DNA of 64,000 nt from Raillietiella orientalis (Eukaryota). This document shows positions 3,001 to 57,850 of the stretch, one piece after another (position 1 is the first letter of the stretch; every line of letters begins with the position of its first letter). The stretch is taken from the NCBI GenBank assembly GCA_036172245.1, contig JAYWIR010000012.1, positions 1,612,001-1,676,000 on the forward strand, given 5' to 3'. The translations under genes were made by a program, and so were the position numbers. The notes below the pieces were generated by a model, which did no database searches, was not told the DNA's origin, and saw only the letters and a program-made list of their open reading frames with translations.

Positions 3001-4557
3001 CCCTCCTCTTTCTCCTCCTTCAAGGGAGTCTAGGACATGGTGTGGATCTATCGGCGGAGGAGCTACTGCCCTCAGCATTCTGATGCAAGGCCCTGAAGGC
3101 TTTTTTTTTTTAAATGCTTTCCTGAAACTTTTCTTTCCGAATGGGGAAGGGAGGACCCTTTTGTGTGACTGGGAAACGACTGATCACTAAGATTGAATCC
3201 GCAGCCATCTTTTCGCATCTCCTCTAAGGCTGGTTGGTTTCGTGGATCACGGATAAAATGAAATTTTTGTTCAGCGGAAGGAACTCTTCCGTGTCTTTTA
3301 TCCATTTTTCTACGAGTTCACCCCGGCGCTGTCAGCAAGGGACATATAGCGGGTCTACGGGCTGTCAGGGCGAAATTGAAAAGCCTTTATGTAGCGTGGA
3401 AAAAACATTAAATAAAAAAATGGCTGCAGCCCAGTGGAAATTGAAGAAATGGGGATTCTTTGCATCCTCGTCTGCAGCTCGTGGAGCGCTCCTTGAATGG
3501 ACACGCGGCCGGCCGAGGCAAAATGATTTTCCCGTGCCTAGTTTTGCCAGAAGGGGCAAAAATAAAATGGAAAACATTTGTGGATAGGAAGACTGGAATA
3601 TCCTCTTTGCACCGCAACTAGCGGCGGCCTGAAAGCCGTTTGTCTTTGGAGTACCAAAAGCAGACCTCTCGCAGACGGCTGCTGGAGCGAAGGAAGCCTC
3701 GGGAACCGTTCGCGTCCAGGTGCTCCTGAGCGAGTCGCGGCTGCGCCCTCGCACACCCACAGAAACCGAGCAGCGGTCTAACGGCGGCTGACTTCTGCGG
3801 AAGCGGCGCGGAATCCAAAAGAGGAGACGTAATTGTGCCCCGGGGAGCGCGCTGCCTGCCGAATTACCCCTGGATGAATTCCCGTTAATATGGTAACGCA
3901 GAGGTTTCCGAAGAGCGAGTTCTTTCAAGGACTCCAAATAGGGTTACACCGGAAACCATAAATTCGCACGAACCCAGCACGAAAGTTGTTCTCGAAGACG
4001 TTCCCGATGATGGCGATTGTCTAACTGCCTTCTTTGTTTTCTGAAACCACCCGACTTAATGTGAGTCCTCAGCTGGCGTTTCGGGAAAATTTTTCAACGG
4101 GAGGTCAAGAGAGGAGGGAGACAAGAGAATCAGGAGAGGGCCTGGCTCTGAACTGGCTCCTCCCGCAGGAAGGTTAGATGGTCCAAAGACCTGCAGAAAT
4201 CTTCCAGAATGCCAGAAATGCCAAGCGGCACCTTAGAAACGGGTGGAGAGGACTTTGTGCTTTTCCTCACAGGTGGCCGACTTTTTTCTTTTTTCTTGTT
4301 TCCAAGCATTGGATGATTGAAATTGGAATGACGCAGGATCAAACTGATGGAAATGGCGTTCGCTTTTCTGGCTGTGTCCGTGAAGATCAAGTGCGTTCAA
4401 ATCAAGTGAGGCCAAATCGCTTCTCGCTACCCGCCTAATGGTCCTGCAGGAACTTCGAGGTGGTTCCTGAACCTTCCAGTCAACCTGGCGACATGATCCT
4501 TTTGTGGGATAAGAGTGCTTTCTCAGAGCGCATTCTTAGATGCAGATTCCACTGGAT

Positions 4558-5362
4558 TGCGTTGGCAGCCGGTGGCTGCGGCCTCTGCCTGTGGTGTCAA
4601 ACGTTGCGAGTTCGAATCTCGCTCGGGGAAGGACAGACGCCGAGAACCGAGAGAGTCGTAGATTTCGAGTTCCCCCCGCAAGATGACGCTGGTTGCCCCA
4701 TATTTGGGTGCGGGGCTGGTGGAAGCTGGTTGTCCTCGCTGAGTGGCCAGAATTGGGAGTTGACCCTTCAGGTCCTTCCAGGAATCAAGGACGCGGTTTC
4801 CTTCAAGGTTTTTCCCCTCCGGTTGTGCAAATGGAGCTATTCAATCTCCCCTCGGGGAGGATCCGCCTCCATGGACTCGTGGATTGATACCTCTCCAGAG
4901 TGTACAGAAGTGTGCTGCTCCCTTCGGGGAGATACCATTCAGAGAAATCGAGAAGCGTCCCTTCAGGGTTCTCTTCAGAGGAGGAAACCAGGAGCGGATC
5001 CTTTCCGCGGGTCCTTCAGAAAAAATGTAGCGGTCCCCTTCTGGGGTTTTCTCCGCAGTGAACAAGGAAGAGTTCCCTTCGAGGCTCGCTTCCAAGTTTG
5101 AGAGGTAAGAACTCCTTCTCCTGGGGTCCCTCCTGCATTTGTGGCATGATCCCCTCCCCGAGGCACCCCCTATCTAGGAGACTTACTACACGCACCCTCT
5201 GGTGGCGTGGACTGAACTCAAGAGCTCCGTAAGTCCAAAAGGCAAACGATGGTTCTCGAGCGGACCAAAAAAAAAAAAGGCCGAAAAAAAAAACAAGAAA
5301 AAGTTGAAATGAAAGCAGCTAAGACAGAAAAGAACCCAAAGAGATGCTCGTCATCATCCGGG
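4558..5362 (+). mobile_element. tRNA-derived SINE, copy 2
   Basis: Head GCGTTGGCAGCCGGTGG...GAGTTCGAATCTC (B-box 4610-4618), conserved body, A-tract at 5267-5301, partial tail module. Confidence 0.85.
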
Positions 5363-8990: not shown

Positions 8991-11529
8991 TTGATTGTAC
9001 TGAAATCCCCAGTGCAGAAACCCCAGTGCACAGCATCCTGCATCCACAGCAACGGGAACACGGAGACGTCCGCATACAGGGAAGGAACTACGACTTCTTC
9101 GGAAGCACACCAAGCAGGTCACTCCACTGAAGGAGTCCCTTTGTCCGGGAACGAGTGGCAGTGTTCACCAATTATCTCGTCTTGCAGCCATCCAGTTTTT
9201 CGATTCCTGCAATGCTGCAGAAGAACTCCCACCCCGTCGGTTGGCTGCTGTCATTTCTCGCCCTGAGTGCAGACAGTGCTGAGGCAAGGGACGAGAGGGC
9301 TATCCAGGACCACAGCATTCAATCCTGCGGGACATCTCTCAGCTGTTTGCGTAGGAGATTCTGCAGCGATCGCAGTTCTTCTGGGAGCCCTTCCAAAGTT
9401 GCTACCCAGGACTTCAGAGCATCATGCCTGGCGGCATGATGCTCTGAAGTTCGTTCCGGTTTATGGGGAGGCAGGAGATCCACGACTGGTCTACAAGTAA
9501 TGAGGACGGATGCCTCAGGGACTAGTCAAATCCAGTCCTACGGCGTAGGTTGCGCGACAGAAGCGAAAGTCCTGCGCTTCCAGCGCATCGCCGGGGCACA
9601 CCAATGGGAAGACCACAATTTTCCATACAGAATGAGAAGTCGAAATGGTAAAAGGTAGACAATGAGAGGCTGTGCAGGCTTCCGGGAAGCACTGCGGAAC
9701 ACCACCAGCAACAAATTGCCGCACACCTCTGTTCCCGTTTCGAGAGGCGGTTCATGGAAAACCCGCAAAAGCTTGCCGAACCGCTTGCTGACGGCGAAGA
9801 TTCAATCCTGCCCATGGGATTCTCGCTTGATTCGCAGCATTCGCAGGAAAAGAAGAAACCATTGGAAGATGTGCTGAATGGGAATGGATGCCGGTTATCA
9901 TTTCTTTTGCCTCTCAGACCAGGTCTCCGAGCGAGCGATGGGCACACCATCCCTGGATTCACAACGGACAGGAACAGGGGGACGAAATGAATCCAAAATG
10001 CTGAGAATGCACCCGATTGCTCTTGAGATTTCGGGCAAGCTACTCCTTCCATAGGAAACTTCCATCACTGAGATGCAGGAACCTTTTGCTGGAGCCCTCA
10101 AACGAAGAGTGCATTTCGGAGACGGCCATTCATCTCGGGACCCACTCTGGAAGTCACGCCGTGACAGGCAAAAAATGTGCTTGAGAAGGTTTGCAAATGT
10201 TCAGAAATTGTCGTGATGTGCTCATGTTGAGCGCATCATTACAGCGGGGCCGGAAAAAGAGCTACCGTGGAGAAATCGAGGATTTGTGGTGCGCTCCTTC
10301 GCGCGGAATGACGTCACGTGCAGCTGCTTTTAAACGCTGAGGTCGTCTCGTGCAGCTTTACCGATCATCAACGACGACGCTTTTTTGCGAGATGAGGCTC
10401 CTAGATCTCAGGACGAAAAAAAATTGGTTGCTAAGATGATCCGGGAAAAACTTTTTTGTTGTGTCATCTGCCTCGCCTTGTGTCATGGATAGGTCGTAAC
10501 TTACTTTGAGGATGAAAAAATCTTTTTAGAGAAGCAATGCTATGAACTGTGACATGGAGTAAATTTCTGGCACCCTGTCTCCTAAAGCAAACTTGGCATC
10601 TGCGAAAGTGATCTCTGTGAACACTGGCTTGAGAGAGCGGCTTCGAATGGAAACACCGGAAGCGTGCAACACTCGAGCTCTGATCCTTTGACTCCACCAA
10701 TTGATGCTGCATTCGACTCGGTTCGCCGATATGCAGGAACCCGTTGATCTGAGGCTGCGACCAGCCCAAAAACATGTCATTTTCCCCAAGGTTTGCTATC
10801 GTCAGCTAACGGTAGGTACCAAATTCGTGTAGCCGTCGGCTAATTCTTCCAGAGAACGCGAATGGAAATCTCATTTCCACGGCTCGCAGTTTGTCGAGAC
10901 TCTGCTTCGAGTATCTGCAGAAGTGGACAACTGCCTTGCGACAGAGGAATTCATCTCTTGATTTCTAGCACGTCTGAGTCATCGAACTACTGGAAATTCG
11001 AGTATGTTTCCGGAGCCGTAGCACGGGAACAGACCTGCCGCAGACTTGAAAAGATCTCTCCCTGATTGGAAGGAAGAAGACTACGATGTCGCTTTCTGGA
11101 GTTCCGCTGTATTTCATGTTCAGCCGACTTCATGATGCTGGAATTTGCATCCTCGTGATTCATTGCTTCGGAAATTTCTCTCCAAGAGGTAGAGGGACCA
11201 TTAGCCTGATCGCTGCGCAGTCCGTCCAGCCGAAGCAGCGTAGCAGAGGGATAGCGTTTCCCAGGAAAACTACGCAAAGGGGCTCCGAACTCCTCTACCA
11301 TGTCCACGAAAACAACTGAGAGAGAGGAGAAAATATCGAAATCCGATGCACTGCTTCCTTCTGGAGCAGCAAACAGCGCTCCACCAAATGTGGATCGTCC
11401 GTCAGACTTCTCTCTATGGACATCTTCTATGCACCCAGCACCGGATGCAAGAAGCAAGCAAGAGGCATTTTCTGAGACGAGTATTTCCGTTTGTCCCTAT
11501 CTCTTTCCGACCGACGGGGGACAGTTTTG

Positions 11530-15010: not shown

Positions 15011-15759
15011 TTCTCGTCCTGAATTTTCGGTAAGCATCTGAGATTCTTCCCACTCTTCGTTTGCTGATCCTCTAGAAACAAAAATCACTTTGCGATTCGT
15101 GGATTCGGGAATATTTCGAGATCTCAGTTTGGGGTTCATAATAATCACTTTTCAAGTTGATCCTTCAAGATGGAAGGATCAAATCTTTCGATTTTTCTCC
15201 TTTCTGTTACATCGTAAAGATTCAACCCTTGCAGAAACTTTCATGCTCGCACCTTCTTTCATGACCCTTAATAAAGAACAACCATTTTTTCAATTGCGGC
15301 GCCCTAGCTGATTCGCAAAACCCTGCTTCCGAGAGCGGAAAGAAGGACGACGTCTTCTTCGGTGATGCTTACAGAAAATGCTGGCTATCCTAAGCTCATC
15401 TTCTCGCACTGATGACCACTCTAAGAAAAGTCATCACTTTTCTTCATGCCGCATTCTTTCCAAAGCATAATGTTCCCTCGAAAAGCTTCTCCAGTCTCTG
15501 GAACTTTGGACTTCACGGAACAAATAGAAGCATAGCTGGAAAAGATAGGAAAGCGGTACTCAAGTGACCTCATGTCTGGAGTGTGCGGAGATGAGCACCC
15601 CTCCTTTTTCTTTTTCCTAGTCCAGTTCGTTCTTCAAGAAGATCAGTGTTGTTTGGCAGTAATCACTGCGACGTCATGTAAGGAAGCAACGCCTTATGAG
15701 AAGCCGGGAAGCTCCAAGAACAATGTTCAAATCCTTGAAAGAAAGACCTGTTGTGATGG

Positions 15760-16780
15760 TTTATCACCCGGATTTTTCCGGAGCATTTATTATGATAATA
15801 ATAAAAGTACATTAAATCAGCCATTGGTTCAACACCATCGTCCAGCTTACCAGTCTCCGGTACAAAGACTGATGAGGTCCACTCCAGCAGCGAAGGGAAG
15901 GGAAAAGCACAAAAACAAACAGCAAAGAAAAGAAGGGGGAGGGAAAAATTTTGGGGGAGAGGGGAGGGCAGGGAAGGGATTACAATACTCCGGGAGACGT
16001 CCCCTGCATCCTGTCCAGGATGCTGACAAGTATTCTTGTGTTGCTTAAGTAGAGCCATCTTGAACACAGTCTTCAAAAAGATCCGCACCCAGTGGATGGA
16101 ATCCCTGCCGTTCTGGCCTCTTCTTGTCGCGTTCCAGGCTGCCACGATTCCACAGACACAGCAGGGGACTGCTAGGGACGCGGCTGGCGGCAGAGCGGCA
16201 CGCATGAAGAGACGCCGAAATATATCCCTGGGGCCGCCTACCGGGATTTCTAGGATCGTCGACAGACGAACCCAAAGGGGTCGGAAGACGGCACTGTCCA
16301 GCAGAAAGTGCGGGAAAGTCTCTTTCTCGCTGCACCTTTTACAACTGACATCCGCACTCCCCCGTGTTCAATGATGGAGGCGTGCTTTGCGTAGGATTCC
16401 CCAATGCAACACCAGCAACGCCAACTCTTGCCACCTCAGGTGGACAATGCCACTGTCCCAACACGCTGGGGATCACTTCACCCTCCCTCGGAGGTATCGC
16501 GAGCAGTTCGCCCCAGCGTAACAGTCCTTTTGGCGGGACGCTTGAGATCTCTGAGTCCGTGAGCTACCTAGCTGTCCACGCACATAGCAGTTTCCTCTTT
16601 CCTGCAAGGTAGCAGGATACTTCCCACTTTGCCCGTAGATTGTTGTAATGGCGAAGTATCCTGGATCGCAAGAAAAAGAACACGGGGTGTAGTCTCGCCG
16701 TGACCTGACCTGATGCTGAAAAGGCACGCGTCATCATAACTGGCATGTGGGGCTTATTCAAAAGCTCAACGAACCGGTTC
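15760..16780 (-). mobile_element. 5'-truncated LINE subfamily B
   Basis: Minus-strand LHWG and ETFPH motifs, homologous to 17542-17892 and 35778-36017. Terminus AATAAATGCTCCGGAAAAATCCGGGTGATAAA. Confidence 0.8.
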
Positions 16781-17032: not shown

Positions 17033-20000
17033 TTTCACCCGGGTAAGCCGGGGCTTTTATTATTTAAAAAACATATTAACAATTATTAATTGCTGTCAAT
17101 TGATTTTTAATTGTATTTGTGTTCCTGTCAGAACACATTGTTCGTATTTGTTATGCACTTGATTTCCGAATTGAGTGCCGGTAAGGCCTTCTCCACTCGC
17201 GAAGGGGACGGGAAAAAGAAAAAAAAAACAAGAAACGAAAAAAAAAAGTTTGGGGGACAATGTTTATGGGGAGGGAAGGGAAGGGAAGGGATCTCTGTTC
17301 GCCGAGGGGAGGCCTCTGCATCTGGTTCCGGATGCGAACAAGTGCTGGCAGAATTTTACTCAGCCGGCGCCAACGGGAAGCCTTCTCCATGGAGATGACC
17401 GCCCAGTGGATGGCATTCCGACTACTGTGGCCTCTGATTGACGCGTTCCACTTATCCAGTATTCCTAGTATGCAGCAGAGAACTGCTACACACGCGGCAC
17501 CTGGCAGGGAGTTCCGCATCAGGAGGAGACGAAAAATATTTTCAGGGTCGCCCACCGGTACGTTTATGGCCGACGAGAGTCGATCCCACGTGAGGCGGAG
17601 GGCACACACACTCGATTAGTAAGTGGGGGAAGGTCTTCCTCTCCCCACACTCTGTACAATGGGCATCCAATCTCCCAATGCCCAGTGAGACAGGCGTGCT
17701 CTGCTCAAAAATCCCCAATGGAGCACAAGCAGCGCCGTCTCCTGCCAATCCAAAGGGAGGGTGCCACTGTCCCAATACGCCGGGGGCCACTTCACCTCCT
17801 CCGGAGGCATGCCGAGCAGCTCGCGCCAGAGCACAATTCCATTTGGCGGGACACTCGGGGTTGTAGCGTCCGCTAGTTCCCGGGACGTCCACGCCTTCAT
17901 TAGTTTTTTCCTGCCTCCGATGAGGCAGGACACTTCATAAGAAGCCTTCTCATCATTTGATACCAGTTCTTGGATGGCGATATTCTGATAGTCTCCTTCA
18001 TCGCTGATGTCTCAAGCCATGGGGCGAAAGATATGGCAGCCATATTGGATTGACAAAAGGAGCCACCATGAGGCGCCTCCTTTTGTCGATGTGCTGCTGT
18101 GCAATCTCCAACTTCCAGATCACCTCTTCATTCCGAGGTTACCAGGACTCTGGTAAGCCTACTATGATGAAATGGACAGCCACCTGAACGCCCACCGTCG
18201 ACAGGAAGGAAGAGAAATCTTCGTGTTTGGTCCCCTTTCTTTCTCGAGCACTGCTGCACATCTTTGTGGAATTCGCGTCAGAGCGTTTCGTAATACAGAG
18301 GATGAGAAACTTGGAAGCGGCGCTCTTCAAATCCGGCTCCTCGGTGTGACGTAAACGCGCACGATCAGTATGGAGGCCAGCAATGCGATCTGAAAATTCG
18401 GAGTGAGCAGCGCAGGTTCGACCAGGCTAGCTTGACGCAGCCCACTCATGGCATCTATCGCACTGCGATAGTGTGATGCAGTCCACGGACAAATTCGCAA
18501 TGTTTTTTTTTTCTTTAAAATAAAAGGGGAGTTGGAACCTCAAGGAGGGATCCTTACTATTGGCCTAGAATGATGGAAATCCTTTGGTTCTTTTGTTTTC
18601 TTTTTTTTTTTGGTTCGCCAAGTGCTGAAGAACCGTTCGCCTCCTCAGGGGGCTGACTAAATCCTTTACCCGCCACCCGAGGATGCGTGTCAACTCTTCA
18701 AGCTACAGAGGGTAACCTTGAAGGGACCACCCTTTGGATCCAGGAAGGCTCCGGAGGAAGCAGTCCATTCCTCTAACTCTTGGTAGGAGAACCGCGAATG
18801 GAAGCCTCGCCCTGGTTGTCTCCGAAGGGAATCCCGGTAAGATCTCTTCCTTATTCTCTCCGGAGAGACCCCTTGCTTTGTGGGGACTGCTTCTCGTTTC
18901 TTCTTGAAGGAACCCGCAAGGCAATCGCGCCCTGTTTCCTCCTCTGAAGAGAACCTCGAGAGGGACGCTTCCAGATTCCTCATAAAGGTCGCTCCCTGAA
19001 GGTAACAGCACCTTCCGACACTCTGGGGAGGCAACCCTTCGAAGGGGGTATCAATCAGCTCCATAATAACCAGGCTTTATTTCCACAACCCAAGAGGAAC
19101 TTTGAATGGCTCCTTGACTCTTGGAAGGACCCCAGAGGATGAACTTCTAATTCCGGCCGGTCAACGGGATCATCCAGTCTCACCGGCGCTGCATCTGAAG
19201 TTCGTGGGCCAATTAGCGCCGTCCTGAGGGGATCAAGTCGGAACCCCGACTAGAAATGAATGCGTCATTCCTTTCCAGGTATTCGAACCAGCAGCGATTG
19301 GTACTGCGCATTCGTAATGGTGAGGCTCTTGTGCCGCGAGTTCTTCGCCAATGAATCTTTCCAACTGCTTACGGAAGAAAACCGCGAAAGCAGATGGGAG
19401 GCAGCAAGCATTTGAGAATGCGCCAGCATCTTTGATTAAAGGAAAAACAAAATTTGCAATCGTGTTTCCGTGGAGGCTCCTTCTTGCGCCTTTGAGAAAG
19501 GCCGTTGGACAAAGGGACTGGGTTTTGTCCAGAGTCACCTTGAACATCCAAATCCATTCCTTTTCGCGTCACTTCTTCTTCATAACGTGGTAGTTGGCGT
19601 CTCGAACAGCCCTTGTCTTTAGAGAAGGTACCTCGTGGTCAGCACAATCCCTTTACCGTTCCTCAAGCGGTGGTTCGTTCCTCCTGAATTTCTGGACGCG
19701 TCTTTCGTTTCGAGGGGCGGCAGCATCAGCAACCTTCCTCTTCCACTCCTCTTCGCAGAGATCATAGTAGTTGCAGAGGGTCGATGATTTAGGAACTGGA
19801 AGACGGCAATGGGAAACCGAAGTATGTGGTAGTCCCCTCTCGCAGGCGGAAACAGTAGAAGCTTTGAGAACCAGAGAGCTTGCCTCAAAGCACGAGTGAA
19901 AGCATCTCGTGAGAGGCAGCGGAGCTGCGGGATCTGCTCATCTGATCGGACCCGGAAGAGAAAGCATTCCCAGTTCGGTTTCAAGACGTCTCTGGTCACC

Positions 20001-22442: not shown

Positions 22443-23290
22443 GATCATCATCCGGTTATGGAGGCTCACTTATTTACATAAAGCCATGAAAATACATTGG
22501 TGTGGTAAAACCCATGGTTTTAGCACGTGCAATGAACCTGCCGAATGCCGGTGCGCAGTCCGGCGAGGTCCGCTTCGGCAGCGTGGAGGAAGGGGAAACA
22601 GAAAAAATAAAAATAATTAAAAAAAAATAAACAAATAAAACAGAAGAGGGGAATTCTTACGCAAAAAGGGAAGTTGACGGAGAGGAAGGGATCACAGTAC
22701 GCTGCCAGGCGTCCTCTGCATCCTGTCCAGTATGCTAGTAAGTTCTGTCCTTGTACCGCCCAGGTGAGGCCATCTCGAGGAGATCTTCAGGAATACTCGT
22801 GCCAGTGGATGGCGCCCTTGCCATTTCTGTCGCTTCTTCTGATATTCCAGGCTGCCACGACAGCAGAGAAATGCAAGGGACGGGCTGGCTGCAATACGGC
22901 ACTCGTGGAGAAGAGTTCCAGAATGTCACTGGGGCCTCAGGATACCTAGGACCGTCGTGAGGTGACCCAAAGAGGATGGAGGTCCAGCAGCAGGTGCGGG
23001 AGAGTCTCCTTCTTCCCCACTTGCCTCACGAGACATCCATGCTCACCCGTGTCCAGTGGTGAAGGCGCGCAGCGCACAGGATTCCCCTATGCAATGCCAA
23101 CTCCTGCCACTTGGGGGGGGGGGGGAGGGAGCCATGACTCCAGTGCGCTGGAGCGACTTCACCTCCTCCGAAGGGATGTCGGGCAGCCCTTTTCAGCGTA
23201 GAAGTCCTTGGTGTGGAAACTCGTGATCTCGGCGTCCGTCACCTCCCGAGTTGTCCACCCGTCCAGAAGTTTCTTCTTTGCTGTAATGCA
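22443..23290 (-). mobile_element. 5'-truncated LINE subfamily B
   Basis: GKKETLPHLLL-type motif at ~22985-23020. Stop region and UTR are homologous to 15880-16330. Confidence 0.75.
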
Positions 23291-27039: not shown

Positions 27040-27218
27040 CTCACTGGACAAAAAAATAGGGAAATAATGGGATGTCCCGAGCAGCGTGGAAAATCGAACG
27101 CCCCGGCGAAGAGCAGAGAGTGGAGCGAGAGTGGGTGTGACGCCAGGGCGTCGCTCCGAGTGGACATGCAGCATCGAATTTCACAGAGAAGCCGCGAAGC
27201 AAAGGGATCAGAAGAAAT
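27040..27218. repeat. ~180-bp direct repeat, left copy (partner 30827-31006)
   Basis: Identical 32-bp core CGAGAGTGGGTGTGACGCCAGGGCGTCGCTCC and colinear flanks. Confidence 0.9.
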
Positions 27219-30826: not shown

Positions 30827-31006
30827 CTCGCTAGGGAAAAAAAAAATAGGGAAACAATGGGATGGCCCGAGAGGCGTGGAAAATCGACCGCCCCAGTGAA
30901 GCGCAGAGCGTGAAACGAGAGTGGGTGTGACGCCAGGGCGTCGCTCCAAGGGGACATGCAGCATCGAATTTCACAAAGTCACGAAGCAAGGAGATCAGAA
31001 GAAAAT
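30827..31006. repeat. ~180-bp direct repeat, right copy (partner 27040-27218)
   Basis: Same 32-bp identical core and colinear flanks as 27040-27218. Confidence 0.9.
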
Positions 31007-32200: not shown

Positions 32201-34483
32201 GAATGTGATCGTGCGAAGAGATAATTAGTGGTCACAAGTGTCAGATGTCGCAACTCAGGCCGATGGCAGCCAGCACCGGTATGCTCTCTGCTGGATCCAG
32301 ATGCCTGTGAGAAGAGGGGAAAACGACTCGCGTTCCCAAAAGACTATGCAGCTTCTAAGTGAACTGTGGGAATCTCACTGCAGTCTTTCGACGCGACCAA
32401 CTGAATCGAGGACGAGCATCTGTCCAGAGAACCTTTGCCAAGAACTTTGCAGTATGAAAAAAATCATCACGTCCGGAGCCCAGTGTCACCTCTATGCCAC
32501 ACGATGCCACCACGTCCGGGTAGAGGCATCCTCTCAGAGAGCAAAGACAAGATGAGGAACACCAGATATTGCTACTTTCCCTAGAGGTGATGGAAGGTGT
32601 CTCTCGGTCCTGAAGGTCAGGTGTCTGCCTCGACGCGTGCGTTTCGGTAAAATCCACTGAAACACGCTCCTTCGTAAATCCGCGTCCACTCTTTGGCCAT
32701 CCGAGAACGTTGCCGCATGATCTGTAATGGATTCTTTTTGCACATTCTTTGTGCTGCACATCTGTCAGCAGTCGCTTGTGCAATCGATGGGCGCAAACGC
32801 GTTTCTGAATAACGAGACGAAGGTTCAGGAAAGGACAGCAACAGGAAAAAAAACGAATCCGCCTTGGGATCCCAGTTGGATTCCTTGTTGAACCGTCACT
32901 TATCTGCTCATCTTAGGCCTGTTTACTTTTTTTTTCTAGTATCCCGAAGATGCAGGAGCAGTGATGCTGACAGCTTTCTTGCGCGCCGCGAGACCAAAAG
33001 GCCTTCCGAAAATCGAAATTCGCGGTTCGCTCGTCCTGCCTCGTTTGAGGTACAGAAGATGCAAGAGAAGGCGGGCTTGGATCTCTCCTAAGCTAGGATG
33101 TGGCTGCATCTGACACTGACTGTAGCAGAGATGACTTGCTGCTACTTTTAGTGTTTAGCTAAACCCTTGTTTGCCTCCAGATCAAACTGGGCAGAGAAAG
33201 CTCTCAGTTCTTCAGTGTCAGAAGAATACCCGAGGTTCTGGCCTTTGCAACTATAGTGGGGCTCATATGAAATCCGGGAAAATTCCCGTGGAGCGGGAAC
33301 CTTGGAGCCTGCGGAGGCACGGATTTCTTAAATGACTCGAGTGAATTCCCGGCGACTGCTGCGGTTTTACTAGCCGAGGAGCTCCGTGACTCTCAAACGA
33401 AGAGTACAACTAGGAGACAGGAGTGCCTATTGTACTAGGATACATCCCTGAAACTTCGGACTCAGAGCACCTGAGACAATGATATCGCTCCATTAGCTTC
33501 TTCGTTTATTCTTTCTGTGTTAGAGAGAAGCCTACACACCATAACTCCTTGCATTCTCGGAACGCCAGTCTGGCATCCTGGAAGTCAACAGTGGCTCCCT
33601 AAGACACCCTAAGACACCGCCTCATGCTAGCACGATGCAGGGTGTAGTTTCTTTGTGGGTTCGAAGAACGATAGCAGCTGCGAAAGGCTTCATTGGAAGA
33701 TGAACAGGAAATTGAGAGAACGTAGACAGCAAAACTCTGAAGAGTTCAAGAATTCCTGGATACTTTTCTTTGCCGTCTGATTGCTGCATGCACGTGTGCT
33801 CGTGTGTGCCCAAGTAGGAACACTCAATGAATAATGCGCGCGTCTTCAGAAACTGCATAGCCCATGGTCGATGCAAAAGAGAATCCCTAAAACGGGATCG
33901 GAACAGGAAAAGAAACGCCTTCTTGCTCAAGCCACTTTCCTTTTCTTACTGCAGGTACAGTTTCGACTTTTGAGTCTCTGTGGGAAATCATGGATCCGTC
34001 ACTGGTGTGCTGCGGCACCCCACATCCTCCGGCGATGCATGGGAGCGCAGGAATTCTTTCGCTGCTTCCGTATAACCCACATAGGGGAACTGGATTTTGC
34101 TACCCCCTGAGGCATCCATCCTTATTTCTGGTAGCTCACCGTGGATCTCCTGTCTCTACAAACACTAAGACGACTGGCGGGGGCAAACACTGTAGTCCTG
34201 GGTTGCAATTCTGGAACTGCTCCCAGAGGTACTTCGTCCCTATGAAAACTGCCAGGAGATATACTGCAGAAATGGATGCAGTGATCCCAGATGGCCGTCA
34301 CATCCCTTTTCGCAGCACTTTCTGCCCTCAGAACAAACGATGATAGCAGCCAACCGTTTGGGTGAGAGCTGTCCCGTAAAATTGCAGGAGTCTGGAAACT
34401 CCTTGACGGCTGCAAGACGAGAGAGCTGATCACCGCCGCCACTTTTCCGGTGGAGGAACTCCTTCGGTAGAGCGACCTGGTGG

Positions 34484-34844
34484 TTCAACACCTGGCGACG
34501 CCGGGTGTTATTATAAAAATAATCAACATACATATGTAGGGCCATCGGCCCCACACCGTCTGAAAATGCTCGGAACCTGCCGAGTAACCGGCACGCAGGC
34601 CGGAGAGGTTCGCCTCGGCAGGCAGAGGTGGGAGGAGCAAACAAAAATAAAAATGAAATAAAAATCAATAAAAAAAAACTCTAGGGATACTACGGAAGGG
34701 GATCACTGTCTGCTAGAGGGCGTCCTCTGCATCTTTTCCCGGATACTGGCAAGTTCCATCCGAGTATGTCCCAGGTGGGACCATCTAGCTGCCGCCTGCA
34801 AGAAGCGCAGGGCGAAGCAGATGGCGTCGCTATCCTCGACAGGA
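34484..34844 (-). mobile_element. LINE subfamily B 3' end nested in A
   Basis: Homologous to 22540-22810. Terminus ATAATAACACCCGGCGTCGCCAGGTGTTGAA. Confidence 0.8.
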
Positions 34845-34928
34845 GACCTCAGATCAGACAAGAGTACCCTCTGAATTTAAGCATATTAAGAAGCTGAGAA
34901 GAATCTAACCAGGATTCCCCTAATAAGG
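34845..34928 (+). pseudogene. Fragment of the extreme 5' end of eukaryotic LSU (25S/28S) rRNA, degenerate and non-functional
   Basis: GACCTCAGATCAGACAAGAGTACCCTCTGAATTTAAGCATATTAAGAAGCTGAGAAGAATCTAACCAGGATTCCCCTAATAA matches the conserved LSU start (ACCCGCTGAAYTTAAGCATATYAATAAGCGGAGGAAAAGAAACYAACxxGGATTCCCCTAGTAA). Confidence 0.9.
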
Positions 34929-35277
34929 GTGACCTGTTTGGTGTGCCCTCCGAAGAACTCGTGGTTCCTTCTCTGTGTGCAGACACCTCTGTGTTCCCGC
35001 TGCGTTGGAAATGTTCAGGATCTTCTGCTGTTGCCACAATGGGGACTCCAGTGCCATTAGCGCAAGCACCCGGTTTCCGGGGGAGTTGCCTCCCCGAACT
35101 GTTCCAGATGCGATGGAATCTTTCCCACATTCCCACACCTCCTGCTGAACTGCAGGAGAAAGTCACGGACATGTGGCGGGGACTTGCTTCAGCGGTCCGC
35201 CACCTGCGGGACACCAATGAGGACTTGCTGCGACGCTTCTTCACCGAAGGTGGGCTGACAGAGGCGCGATGACACGG

Positions 35278-36308
35278 TCTCACTCCCGGGTGTGACGGGG
35301 AGTTCATTCCTCTTGCAGGAGTTGATGGAGCCAAAAAGCTCAGATTCCAATCACTACATTAGGGAAAACGAGGGGGATCACGTGGTCCATCACGTACACG
35401 AAGGGGAAGGGGGATGAAGCAAAATTAGAACAAAAAGAAAACAAACTATAACAAACAATAAACGTCAACAAAACAATAAAGACAAAAAACAAAACAGAAA
35501 AAAAAATAAATTTGGGGGAAGGGAAGGGATCATTTTTATGATGGGCGAGGCCTCGAAATCCGTTGAAGGATGTCGGCGAGCTCCTCCTTCTCCCTTTCCA
35601 GTTGGGGACACCTCAAAGCTATCCGCATGAAGCGAATGGCGTGCAGGGCAGCCCCCTCGTCTCTCCGACCTCTCTCGGCGTGGCACTTCGCCGCGACGAC
35701 ACTGCGCACGCAGCACAGAGCTGCGATTGCGGCTGCGGGCGTCATGGCGTCCCACACGAAGAGGGACCTCAAAGAGTCTATGGAATCGTCCACGGGGTGT
35801 GGAGGGACGCAGAGAAACTTTCCCATAATTTCCGGAGAGCGACACACTGCACTATGAGGTGGGGGAAAGTCTCCTTCTCTCCACACCTGGCACAATTGGG
35901 CGATGCGCTTCCCCTCGTCCAGTGGTGCCGGAGCGCATTGCACGGAAGACCCCAGTGCAGTATCATCAGCGCCGATTGCTGCCACGCGAGGGGAAGCAGC
36001 TTTCTATCCATAAACACGGGGGCACTTCCAACTCTTCAGGCTGAATGAAGAAGAGTTCTCCCCAACGTTCCAGTCCTTTGGAGACGGTTCTTGCTGTTTC
36101 CGCGTCAACCAGCTGCCGCGGAGTCCAGCCACCGATAGGCTTCCTGCAGGTCGAGATCTCATAGGAAACCTTCCATTTCGACGGTAGGCAGGTGGCATGT
36201 ACCCCGACAGTGGTGGACACCTCTGCGGCGAAGGGCGTGGCTGCTGGGTAGACCAACGTGGTCAGCTCACTACCCAATGCCTACAGTGTTCTTCCGCTGT
36301 TCTTCTCG
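35278..36308 (-). mobile_element. 5'-truncated LINE subfamily B nested in A
   Basis: ORF 35778..36017(-): ILHWGLPCNALRHHWTRGSASPNCARCGEKETFPHLIVQCVALRKLW (clear zf-RVT). Terminus GAATGAACTCCCCGTCACACCCGGGAGTGAGA. Confidence 0.88.
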
Positions 36309-46794: not shown

Positions 46795-47912
46795 TTTATC
46801 ACCCGGTCACGCCGGGACGTTTATTAAATAAACAAGTCGGGAACAAAGTTCTCAACCAAGGCAACAAAAAAATCTAGGGGGCGGGATCCACCGGCACACA
46901 GACCGGGAAAACGAAAAGTCCGGAGCAAGGAAGGAATAGGAGCACAACAAAAAAAGAAACAAAAAACAAACCGGGAGGGAAGGGGCACGGATCTTTGGTG
47001 ACGCTCCGTAATCACCAGGATAAAAACTAAAAGCATCAAGAAAGCTACGGAGGGTAAGAAAACTAGGAATTAGAAACATAAAGAAATAAATAAAGGAAGG
47101 GAGGGAGCAAGGCTCACCGGGTTCGCCGTTCCAAACCGTCCGTAAACCGGCGGTGGATGTCGGTGATCTCTTTTGCTTCTTCTGTCAGGTGAGGCTGCCT
47201 GGCAGACGCCCCGATGTAGGTGGTGCCATCCTGATGACCACCCTTTGATGCCCGGTGATTATCTGCATCTGTAGGGCCAAAACGATGGCGCGGATGCAAC
47301 CCATGGTTTCATTGATTGCGCCCACCGAGAGGCCGCTCAGCGCGAAGAACAGCCGCAGCGTCGCTTGCGGTATCCTCCTGGTGCAGAAGTGCTGTTGCCA
47401 GCCTCTGCCACAGTTCATGGAGGGCACCGCAGTCCAAAAACAGGTGCAGCGGGATCGACTCCGTCGCCCCACACCTGCCACAGTTCGTGGACGCAACCCC
47501 TCCGGGAACACGATGCCGTCGCTCGTTTCACTGGAATGCCCAGTGAATGAAGAGCAGTACGGCCTGTTTTCAAAAGAGGAGGGACAGCGAACCGTCCACA
47601 CAATGGGGAGGGACCAGCTCGAGGGCAACACTAAGAAGTTCTCCCCATCGAAGGAGCCTCTTTGCCATAGCACGAGGAGTGGCAGAATCCTCCAGCTCTC
47701 TCCTCTTCCAGCCGCCGGGGAGTTTTCTTCTTCCCGCGATGGTGCAGGAAACCCTCCACCTCGCCGGTAGGCTGCTGTCGTCACTTGCCCTGAGGACAAA
47801 CAGAGCTGAGGAGAATGGTATGGCTGCCAGTGTGGAAAACTTCACCGCGTCCTGCATCACCTCTTCCAGCGGTCGTGGTAGTAGATGTCTTAGGGAAAGG
47901 TGGGAAAGGAAG
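46795..47912 (-). mobile_element. 5'-truncated LINE subfamily A with short TSD
   Basis: SLPARWRVS...RLLRWGELL and A-type C-terminus. Terminus AATAAACGTCCCGGCGTGACCGGGTGATAAA. TTTGGTGGGAAGTT at 46783-46796 and 47913-47926. Confidence 0.8.
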
Positions 47913-56399: not shown

Positions 56400-57850
56400 A
56401 TGGTCGAGCAGCAGCGAGAGCGGCTACCGACCACAGACGTAGGGATAGGCCACGGGAGCAAACGCTGGGAGCCTTGGCGGTCGCAATCGATCTGCACGAA
56501 GCATTCGACTGCAGGAATAGGAACTTCTAGAGTTCTTGCGGCGTCTCGGTCATCCAATAAACCTACTGGCCTACTTGCTCTCTTGCTGACGCCAAGCGGT
56601 TACGAGCATCTTTTTCAGCTGCTGTCACGATTACGGCGTGTCGGTGCGGCTGGGAATAAGGCAAGGAGACACTTTAAGCCCTCTGCTCTTCAGCATCTTC
56701 TTCGAGTTGGTGCTCAACGCTTACAGGCTGATGCTGGCCGAACTGCGAGCCCCTGTCCACTGCTACCAACGCGGACAACCTGCTTCTCCTGTTGCTCATG
56801 TACACCCCGGGGGCTCGAAGATTATTTCGAGCTGATCCTTCGGGGAGCGGGCAAGTTTCAGAAGGAGTAAGAGCGTGGTCATCCCGGTGGGAGCAGCGAG
56901 GGAAGAGCAGTCCGACTGGATCTGCCTAGGGATCCTCACGGGCAGGTACTTCAAGTACCTTGGAGGGCGGTTGGGCGACTTCTGTGGTGCAGAAGCGTGG
57001 TCAGACTGCCTTAGGAAGGCAGAGAGTGCCCTTGGTCCATTCCTAGGTGGCGAGTTCGTCTTATCGGAACGGGTCTCCGTCTTGAACTGCTTTGTTGCCC
57101 CCCTCTCCTCCCCTTGTCTTTTGTTTGCTCGCCCCTTATTCCGTCAAGATCCGGGCGCAACGCCTCCTACGCAAAGGGTTGTATGGCGCTGCGAAATCCC
57201 AGATACGATTGAAAGACTTGGTGGCGCCGCGTCAGAATGCTGGCTTGGGCACCCTGGCCATCGAAAGATCGGACTTCAGTTGCAGTTCCGAATGAGCACT
57301 ATGTGCGATACTCTGGTGCACTACTCGCCTTGGTATCTACCTGCGCGCCTTCTCCTTCGACGCTGCACCGGCAGCAAAGGACTTGTTTCATTGCTGCCGC
57401 TTTCGGCACACCAGCAAAGAATCTGGCTTCCCGCTGAGGCAATTTGCCTTGCTACTGGAAGCCCAAATTTGGATCTTCTGCCGCCCTATGAATTGCAATG
57501 CATGGCGGCAGGAGACCGTTGCGTCATGGGCTGCTAATACGGGAATGTGACCGGAAGACCTTCGGGGTCCATGACATCTGCTGAGCCTGGAAGAGGTAAT
57601 GCAGGACCAGAGGTGAAATCGCCTAGCCTCCACACCCCTTGCCGCATCGCCGTCTGCCCTTAGGGAAAGCAACGACAGTTGCCTACCGGCGGGGTGGGAG
57701 TTTTGCACCACTGCAGGAGAGACGAAGCTCCTTGGAGGCTGGAAGACAAAGGGACTGGTGCATACCTCCACTCCTTCGAATCGGACCAAGGGATTTCTCC
57801 GGTGGAGCGAATTGTTAAGTGTTAAGAGGGTTTCGATCCATCCGTCGAGT
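56400..57850 (+). mobile_element. LINE subfamily A reverse-transcriptase core and downstream region (frameshifted)
   Basis: IDLHEAFD (~56487), GIRQGDTLSPLLFSIF (56638..56835), disrupted (Y)ADN and YFKYLG (~56947), in the canonical non-LTR RT order. Confidence 0.9.

Follow-up and report, generated by a model that had tools for sequence, protein, structure and literature searches.

Locus structure and genomic context

The window, by which we mean the whole 64-kb stretch of DNA that was analysed, carries a composite insertion whose two parts stand in opposite orientations: a minus-strand 3' end of a repeat family, here called B, and a plus-strand fragment from the start of large-subunit (LSU, 28S) rRNA. 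A short joint separates the two parts, and a single target site duplication (TSD) flanks the whole. It sits inside an older LINE copy, referred to as A, and the three A paralogs that were compared are uninterrupted at this site. Read in the orientation of B, the order is TSD, antisense rRNA from position 92 to position 1, joint, B in the sense direction to its 3' end, and TSD.

The GC content of the window is 51.6%, with an observed/expected ratio of 0.82 for CpG and of 0.46 for TpA, which is strongly depleted; this is a dinucleotide profile that we take to be unlike that of vertebrates. Old repeats form a patchwork across the window, with 32 self-matches at E ≤ 1e-10. Among the 25 listed repeat pairs of at least 150 bp, most were 64–75% identical, and the youngest of those listed (27050–27217 and 30840–31004, same strand) shared 88% identity over 168 bp. 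A Pfam search of 395 open reading frames (ORFs) of at least 75 amino acids, in sets of 143, 150 and 102, gave zero, one and two ORFs respectively with any family, none of them above the curated cut-off. One of these matches, to SCIFF, was rejected as plainly spurious. The window held one weak trace of a reverse transcriptase domain (RVT_1), at 56590–56832 on the plus strand (E 0.0034, 17.5 bits, below cut-off, with the motif RQGDTLSPLLF), some 1 kb upstream of an A paralog (57636–57823).

The interrupted element and its target site duplication

Comparison with the paralogs of A allowed the target to be reconstructed on both sides. The left part of the interrupted copy (34029–34471, plus strand) is collinear with 9594–9115 on the minus strand, and the right part (34944–35530, plus strand), which includes a CCHC-like motif at about 35090–35160, is collinear with 9122–8553 on the same minus strand, each at 68% identity. 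Taken together, the flanks 34303–34479 and 34929–35095 align with one continuous stretch of that paralog (9291–8956, minus strand), with an overlap of 8 bp. The empty site is found uninterrupted at 9106–9122 (minus strand) in this best paralog, and also at 57807–57823 (plus strand) and 47627–47643 (minus strand) in the two others.

The left TSD copy, GCGACCTGGTGG, spans 12 nt (34472–34483), and each of the three A paralogs has a single copy of it. The right copy, GTGACCTGTTTGGTG, spans 15 nt (34929–34943) and was delimited by comparison with the paralogs and by 8-mer matches to the left copy. The two copies differ by two mismatches and an indel of 1–3 nt: the first 8 nt are secure, and beyond them one indel and one mismatch are required. 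The target is GC-rich, and B ends directly at the TSD. The first-pass annotation had placed both parts inside a single TSD pair, and this holds, since the pair surrounds the B 3' end and the rRNA together and the duplicated sequence is single in three of three A paralogs. Two details of that description had to be revised, because the duplication is not a perfect match (12 against 15 nt) and B and the rRNA are not in direct contact, 8–9 nt lying between them.

The TSDs of two B insertions (15749–15790 and 34466–34500) both start with CCAYCA in the orientation of B, and the bases beyond are similar. This similarity possibly indicates a target preference of the B endonuclease, or it may be due to chance. 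The likeness of the flanks had also raised the idea that the two B copies share one composite; this was rejected, the left flank of the copy at 15787 having no match to A.

The B element

The B part of the composite occupies 34484 to about 34835 (minus strand) and matches four further B copies elsewhere in the window, with identities of 59–67%. These are located at 22534–22775 (66.8% identity to the B part), 15787–16106 (59%), 17177–17414 (59%) and 35467–35641 (61.5%). No match to the other copies extends beyond 34831, and therefore the rRNA piece is not part of the B repeat; it is absent from all four other copies (4/4), in which B sequence occupies the corresponding place. A T-rich 3' untranslated region (UTR; 34484–34702, minus strand) was delimited by alignment with the copies beginning at 22534, 15787 and 17177; it terminates in ...GGTGTTGAA at 34484 and carries no poly(A). 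Upstream of it lies the 5'-truncated end of an ORF (34703–34834, minus strand) in a frame common to the copies, consisting of 43 codons (34834–34706) followed by a TGA stop (34705–34703).

The same terminus, ...GGTGATAAA, closes a second B copy directly before a candidate TSD of its own, which is 11 nt long with one mismatch (15749–15759 and 16641–16651). Chance alone would yield about 0.3 matches as good as this one in the area that was searched, and the candidate therefore counts only through its location. The longer copies carry a C..C...H....C motif further upstream in the shared minus-strand frame. The shared 3' end, the frame with the CCHC motif and the target duplications in two copies are the features that identify B as the probable 3' part of a non-LTR retrotransposon, an assignment that is well supported rather than demonstrated, and on the same features B appears to behave as a TPRT element.

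The protein evidence for this assignment is weak. A zf-RVT match at 35781–36035 (minus strand), the best for that family in the window, reached E 5.3e-4 and 21 bits against a cut-off of 27.5, and the read-through frames of B gave zf-RVT at E 0.1 and 0.23; a protein atlas agrees with this family, as a lead only. Pfam found no reverse transcriptase domain (RVT_1) in any of the B copies, all of which are short. A word-based homologue search with the 234-amino-acid B ORF returned 1979 candidates, none at E ≤ 0.001. A profile of five B copies, searched against 1.84 billion proteins, produced one match (E 6.5e-6) that covers the CCHC stretch only, and in the protein concerned Pfam identifies Fer2_3 and Plant_tran and no reverse transcriptase. 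The name LINE, under which B was originally annotated, is sustained by the shared 3' end, the CCHC frame and the TSDs, and from the protein side weakly.

Three of the B copies (15760–16640, ~17100–17940 and 22445–23290) share a nearly identical 5' endpoint, about 850–880 bp from the 3' end. Instead of random truncation, this suggests either a short non-autonomous derivative of B or preferential truncation at this point. Another B-type 3' end, the one with the best zf-RVT match, lies at 35440–36035 (minus strand), about 500 bp from the chimera; it and the interrupted A copy are arranged tail to tail. A hairpin in the B 3' UTR (34576–34622) found no support as a conserved structure, as the four-copy consensus folded at only −4.89 kcal/mol and a double change was seen in one of 11 pairs.

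The ribosomal RNA fragment

The stretch at 34845–34932 on the plus strand corresponds to positions 2–92 of LSU (28S) rRNA and is antisense to B, its last 4 nt (34929–34932) being common to the TSD. From 34845 onward the plus strand reads GACCTCAGATCAG.... In a search restricted to 136 nt and run in 3'-truncation mode, the Rfam model of eukaryotic LSU rRNA (RF02543) matched from 34844/5 to 34932 over model positions 1–92, with 52.4 bits and E 3.7e-12. Position 1 of the model is aligned with 34844 as a mismatch, GACCUCA follows from 34845, and the agreement continues to model position 92 at 34932. By manual count, 76 of the 89 aligned positions are identical across model positions 1–92, with a deletion of 3 nt. 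Beyond 34932, none of the next seven positions agrees with the model (0/7), and therefore the rRNA homology stops sharply at that point; its other end is sharp too.

The first-pass annotation had paired a minus-strand B 3' end with a plus-strand fragment from the 28S 5' end, in the manner of an inverted 5' segment. Its reading of the two parts is borne out by the RF02543 match and by the four other B copies, and the rRNA is indeed antisense to B. The fragment was also said to begin near the 28S 5' end, and the alignment places this start at model position 1–2; the stop at the mature 28S end is thereby located to within 8–9 nt, relative to a pan-eukaryote model.

The score of this match depends on the length of sequence searched: against a gathering threshold of 50 bits for RF02543, the piece obtained 52.4 bits in 136 nt, 28.4 bits in 1 kb and 34.1 bits (E 1.9e-4) in the whole window, and at gathering thresholds the entire window gave no Rfam match. 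It was nevertheless the best of three matches in the whole-window search, the other two (a Brucella sRNA and a miRNA) being implausible, and it is the only credible RNA match within the 64-kb window. The same search found no rRNA or snRNA pieces at other repeat junctions in the window, where the rRNA piece itself occurs only once. The subthreshold scores of the wider searches could be taken to mean that the resemblance to rRNA is fortuitous or that the composite is an assembly artefact. We regard this as scarcely credible, given the bit score and E-value of the narrow search, the 76/89 identity at the start of the LSU rRNA, where conservation is strongest, and a set of mutations and a TSD that are as expected for an old genomic insertion.

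The piece is a pseudogene fragment of 92 nt with broken pairs. Two base pairs of the first helix are disrupted, as indicated by the NC marks of the RF02543 alignment, and all four CpG of the model consensus inside the piece have changed (4/4). The B part shares 52–57% identity with the other copies in pairwise comparison and the rRNA piece shares 85% with the model, figures that are not comparable as measures of age. The insertion is old, decayed and inert, with no sign of function.

Junctions of the composite

The joint between B and the rRNA (34836–34844), TCGACAGGA, is 8–9 nt long and has no likeness to A, to the other B copies or to the rRNA model. It could represent untemplated or end-joining filler, additional 5' bases of the host 28S or of a longer precursor, or the end of ITS2; at most these 8–9 nt upstream of the rRNA piece could be ITS2. 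At the right junction, model positions 89–92 of 28S (consensus GCGA, here GTGA) coincide with the first 4 nt of the TSD, which read GCGA in the left copy. According to the structure line of RF02543, this GCGA site lies within a five-base hairpin loop formed by positions 88–92. The microhomology between 28S and the target for which the first-pass annotation had suggested a check was located, as the 4 nt GCGA at 28S 89–92.

No A sequence lies between the B and rRNA parts, and no second TSD was found around either half; a TSD belonging to the rRNA piece itself, which would have separated it from the B insertion, was sought and none was detected. These observations bear on whether a tailless 28S retrocopy and a B insertion could have landed side by side in two independent events. 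Each kind of insertion does occur alone, according to the available part of PMC2912911, and, the divergence figures of B and of the rRNA not being comparable, the halves may differ in age. Against this, the lack of intervening A sequence and the single duplication that flanks the composite, with no second one for either half, make two events improbable.

The 4-nt overlap can be read in two ways. In the first, the overlap marks the site at which the target DNA primed on the rRNA. In the second, end joining would have incorporated a free run-off cDNA of the 28S 5' end, or an RNA-templated patch, into the 5' junction during resolution of the B insertion, with no priming by the target. The filler of 8–9 nt at the B/28S joint resembles end joining, and an overlap of 4 nt would also suit microhomology-mediated joining. 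However, the overlap is situated exactly where the 3' end of the second nick, that is the TSD boundary, meets the rRNA, as priming predicts, and under capture the cDNA would require a primer of other origin. We therefore consider capture unlikely, albeit the least unlikely of the alternatives. With a 4-nt overlap in one event, the case for priming is suggestive rather than proof.

Proposed origin of the chimera

The first-pass annotation had interpreted the locus as twin priming in trans, in which the second priming takes place on a second RNA. Our results support this interpretation, the mechanism itself being read from its product and each of the suggested checks that was carried out having given the predicted outcome, and we assign a probability of roughly 0.7 to a single retrotransposition event having produced the two-RNA chimera in this way. 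In the proposed sequence, a first nick in the older A copy would prime reverse transcription of the RNA of a B-family LINE, and the B cDNA would halt about 350 nt from the 3' end of B. The 3'-OH of the second, staggered nick (...GGTCGC) would then anneal through 4 nt to GCGA in the LSU rRNA loop, and the second cDNA would extend from that loop and run off at the rRNA 5' end. The two cDNA ends would be joined with the 8–9 nt of filler, and filling in of the staggered nicks would leave the target duplication of 12–15 bp. The net product would be a LINE insertion with a tailless 28S retropseudogene at its far end. The anatomy, the single TSD, the orientation, the rRNA start and the 4-nt overlap are observed; we infer from the product this order of events, the enzyme that did the copying and the use of mature rRNA as the template.

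The position at which the second cDNA ends is informative as to its template. An end at rRNA position 1–2 points to RNA rather than to rDNA. If the rDNA unit is several kb long, as we assume, a DNA breakpoint would presumably fall within about 10 bases of the 28S border by chance about once in 1000 cases.

A related question is whether the two parts were already joined before they were inserted. Under such a scheme, an antisense B copy at the ITS2/28S border of the rDNA unit, or a ligated RNA, would have been transcribed and retrotransposed as a single RNA, and some chimeras do derive from fused RNAs, as reported in the accessible portion of PMC13174262. However, the 5' end of B would have to land by chance almost exactly at 28S position 1, only a few nt away, and the joint has no second copy in the window. 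Furthermore, the routes through fused RNA are described in that portion as giving chimeras of the same orientation. Template switching or RNA ligation leaves the parts in the same orientation (PMC13174262, same portion), and therefore neither fits the antisense arrangement of B and 28S. A fused template is accordingly improbable, to about the same degree as two separate insertions, and twin priming in trans remains the reading that we prefer.

Comparison with known systems

Chimeras of this general type have been catalogued for human L1 (PMC13174262, Cell Genomics 2026; the statements below reflect the portions of the article and its tables that were accessible). The 5S rRNA, tRNA and U5 segments in that catalogue are mostly antisense to L1, commonly start at position 1 of the RNA at the junction, and are cut at loops or at tRNA-half sites. 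These chimeras of L1 and non-coding RNA (ncRNA) lie within duplications of 7–19 bp, and their authors proposed twin priming. The present composite shares with the human 5S/L1 and tRNA-half/L1 chimeras an antisense RNA whose position 1 adjoins a 5'-truncated LINE, a 3' truncation within a loop, and one TSD, of 7–17 bp in the human cases, around both parts. It differs from them in its RNA, which is 28S, in a LINE that lacks poly(A), and in a target without TT/AAAA-like character (PMC13174262, accessible portions).

In the human 28S/L1 chimeras, too, one TSD encloses a 28S fragment that adjoins the 5' end of an L1. Among the 18 rows of Table S3 in PMC13174262, as accessible, 15 are sense and the segments lie mostly at 3636–4115, the three antisense segments covering 1645–1760, 4134–4495 and 4530–4616. 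None of these 18 begins at 28S position 1, the nearest starts being 254 and 313. The literature searched, whose coverage left out most subscription journals, contained no report of an antisense chimera between the 28S 5' end and a LINE.

Two further systems were compared through the available part of PMC2912911. In classical twin priming, an L1 copy acquires a 5' inversion, with microhomologies at the internal priming site. The two primings from a staggered break, the inverted 5' segment and the microhomology are the same in the present case, but a single L1 RNA is used there, whereas two different RNAs, B and LSU rRNA, would be involved here. Tailless retropseudogenes of tRNA, rRNA and snRNA are also known from that source. 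They resemble the rRNA piece in being 3'-truncated copies that reach the RNA 5' end, with no A tail and with a TSD; they stand alone, whereas here the TSD is shared with a LINE fragment (PMC2912911, same part).

Insertions of L1 are marked by a poly(A) tail and by cleavage at a TT/AAAA-like site, and the B insertion has neither. Given the lack of poly(A) and the GC-rich target, the B-28S composite is not classed as an L1 (ORF2p) event. Its architecture and the explanation for it have thus already been published for human L1; the differences lie in the 28S 5' end, in a LINE without poly(A), in a target that is not A/T-rich and in a genome whose composition we take to be unlike that of vertebrates.

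Significance

The value of the locus is that of a clean natural record: the empty sites are present in the same window, the rRNA start is at position 1–2, and the priming site, which lies in a loop, is readable at a resolution of 4 nt. We see an even chance that twin priming in trans extends beyond mammalian L1, in that a LINE lacking poly(A), in a genome with a non-vertebrate-like profile, used its second nick to prime on the exposed hairpin loop of processed LSU rRNA at nt 88–92 and copied this RNA to its 5' end. If the host is non-vertebrate and B is not an L1, a mechanism catalogued for human L1 would extend to another type of LINE. If the reading of twin priming beyond mammalian L1 is true, it would place large-subunit rRNA within reach of the integration complex, and antisense chimeras of ncRNA and LINE would be a general by-product of TPRT and a possible source of new SINE heads.
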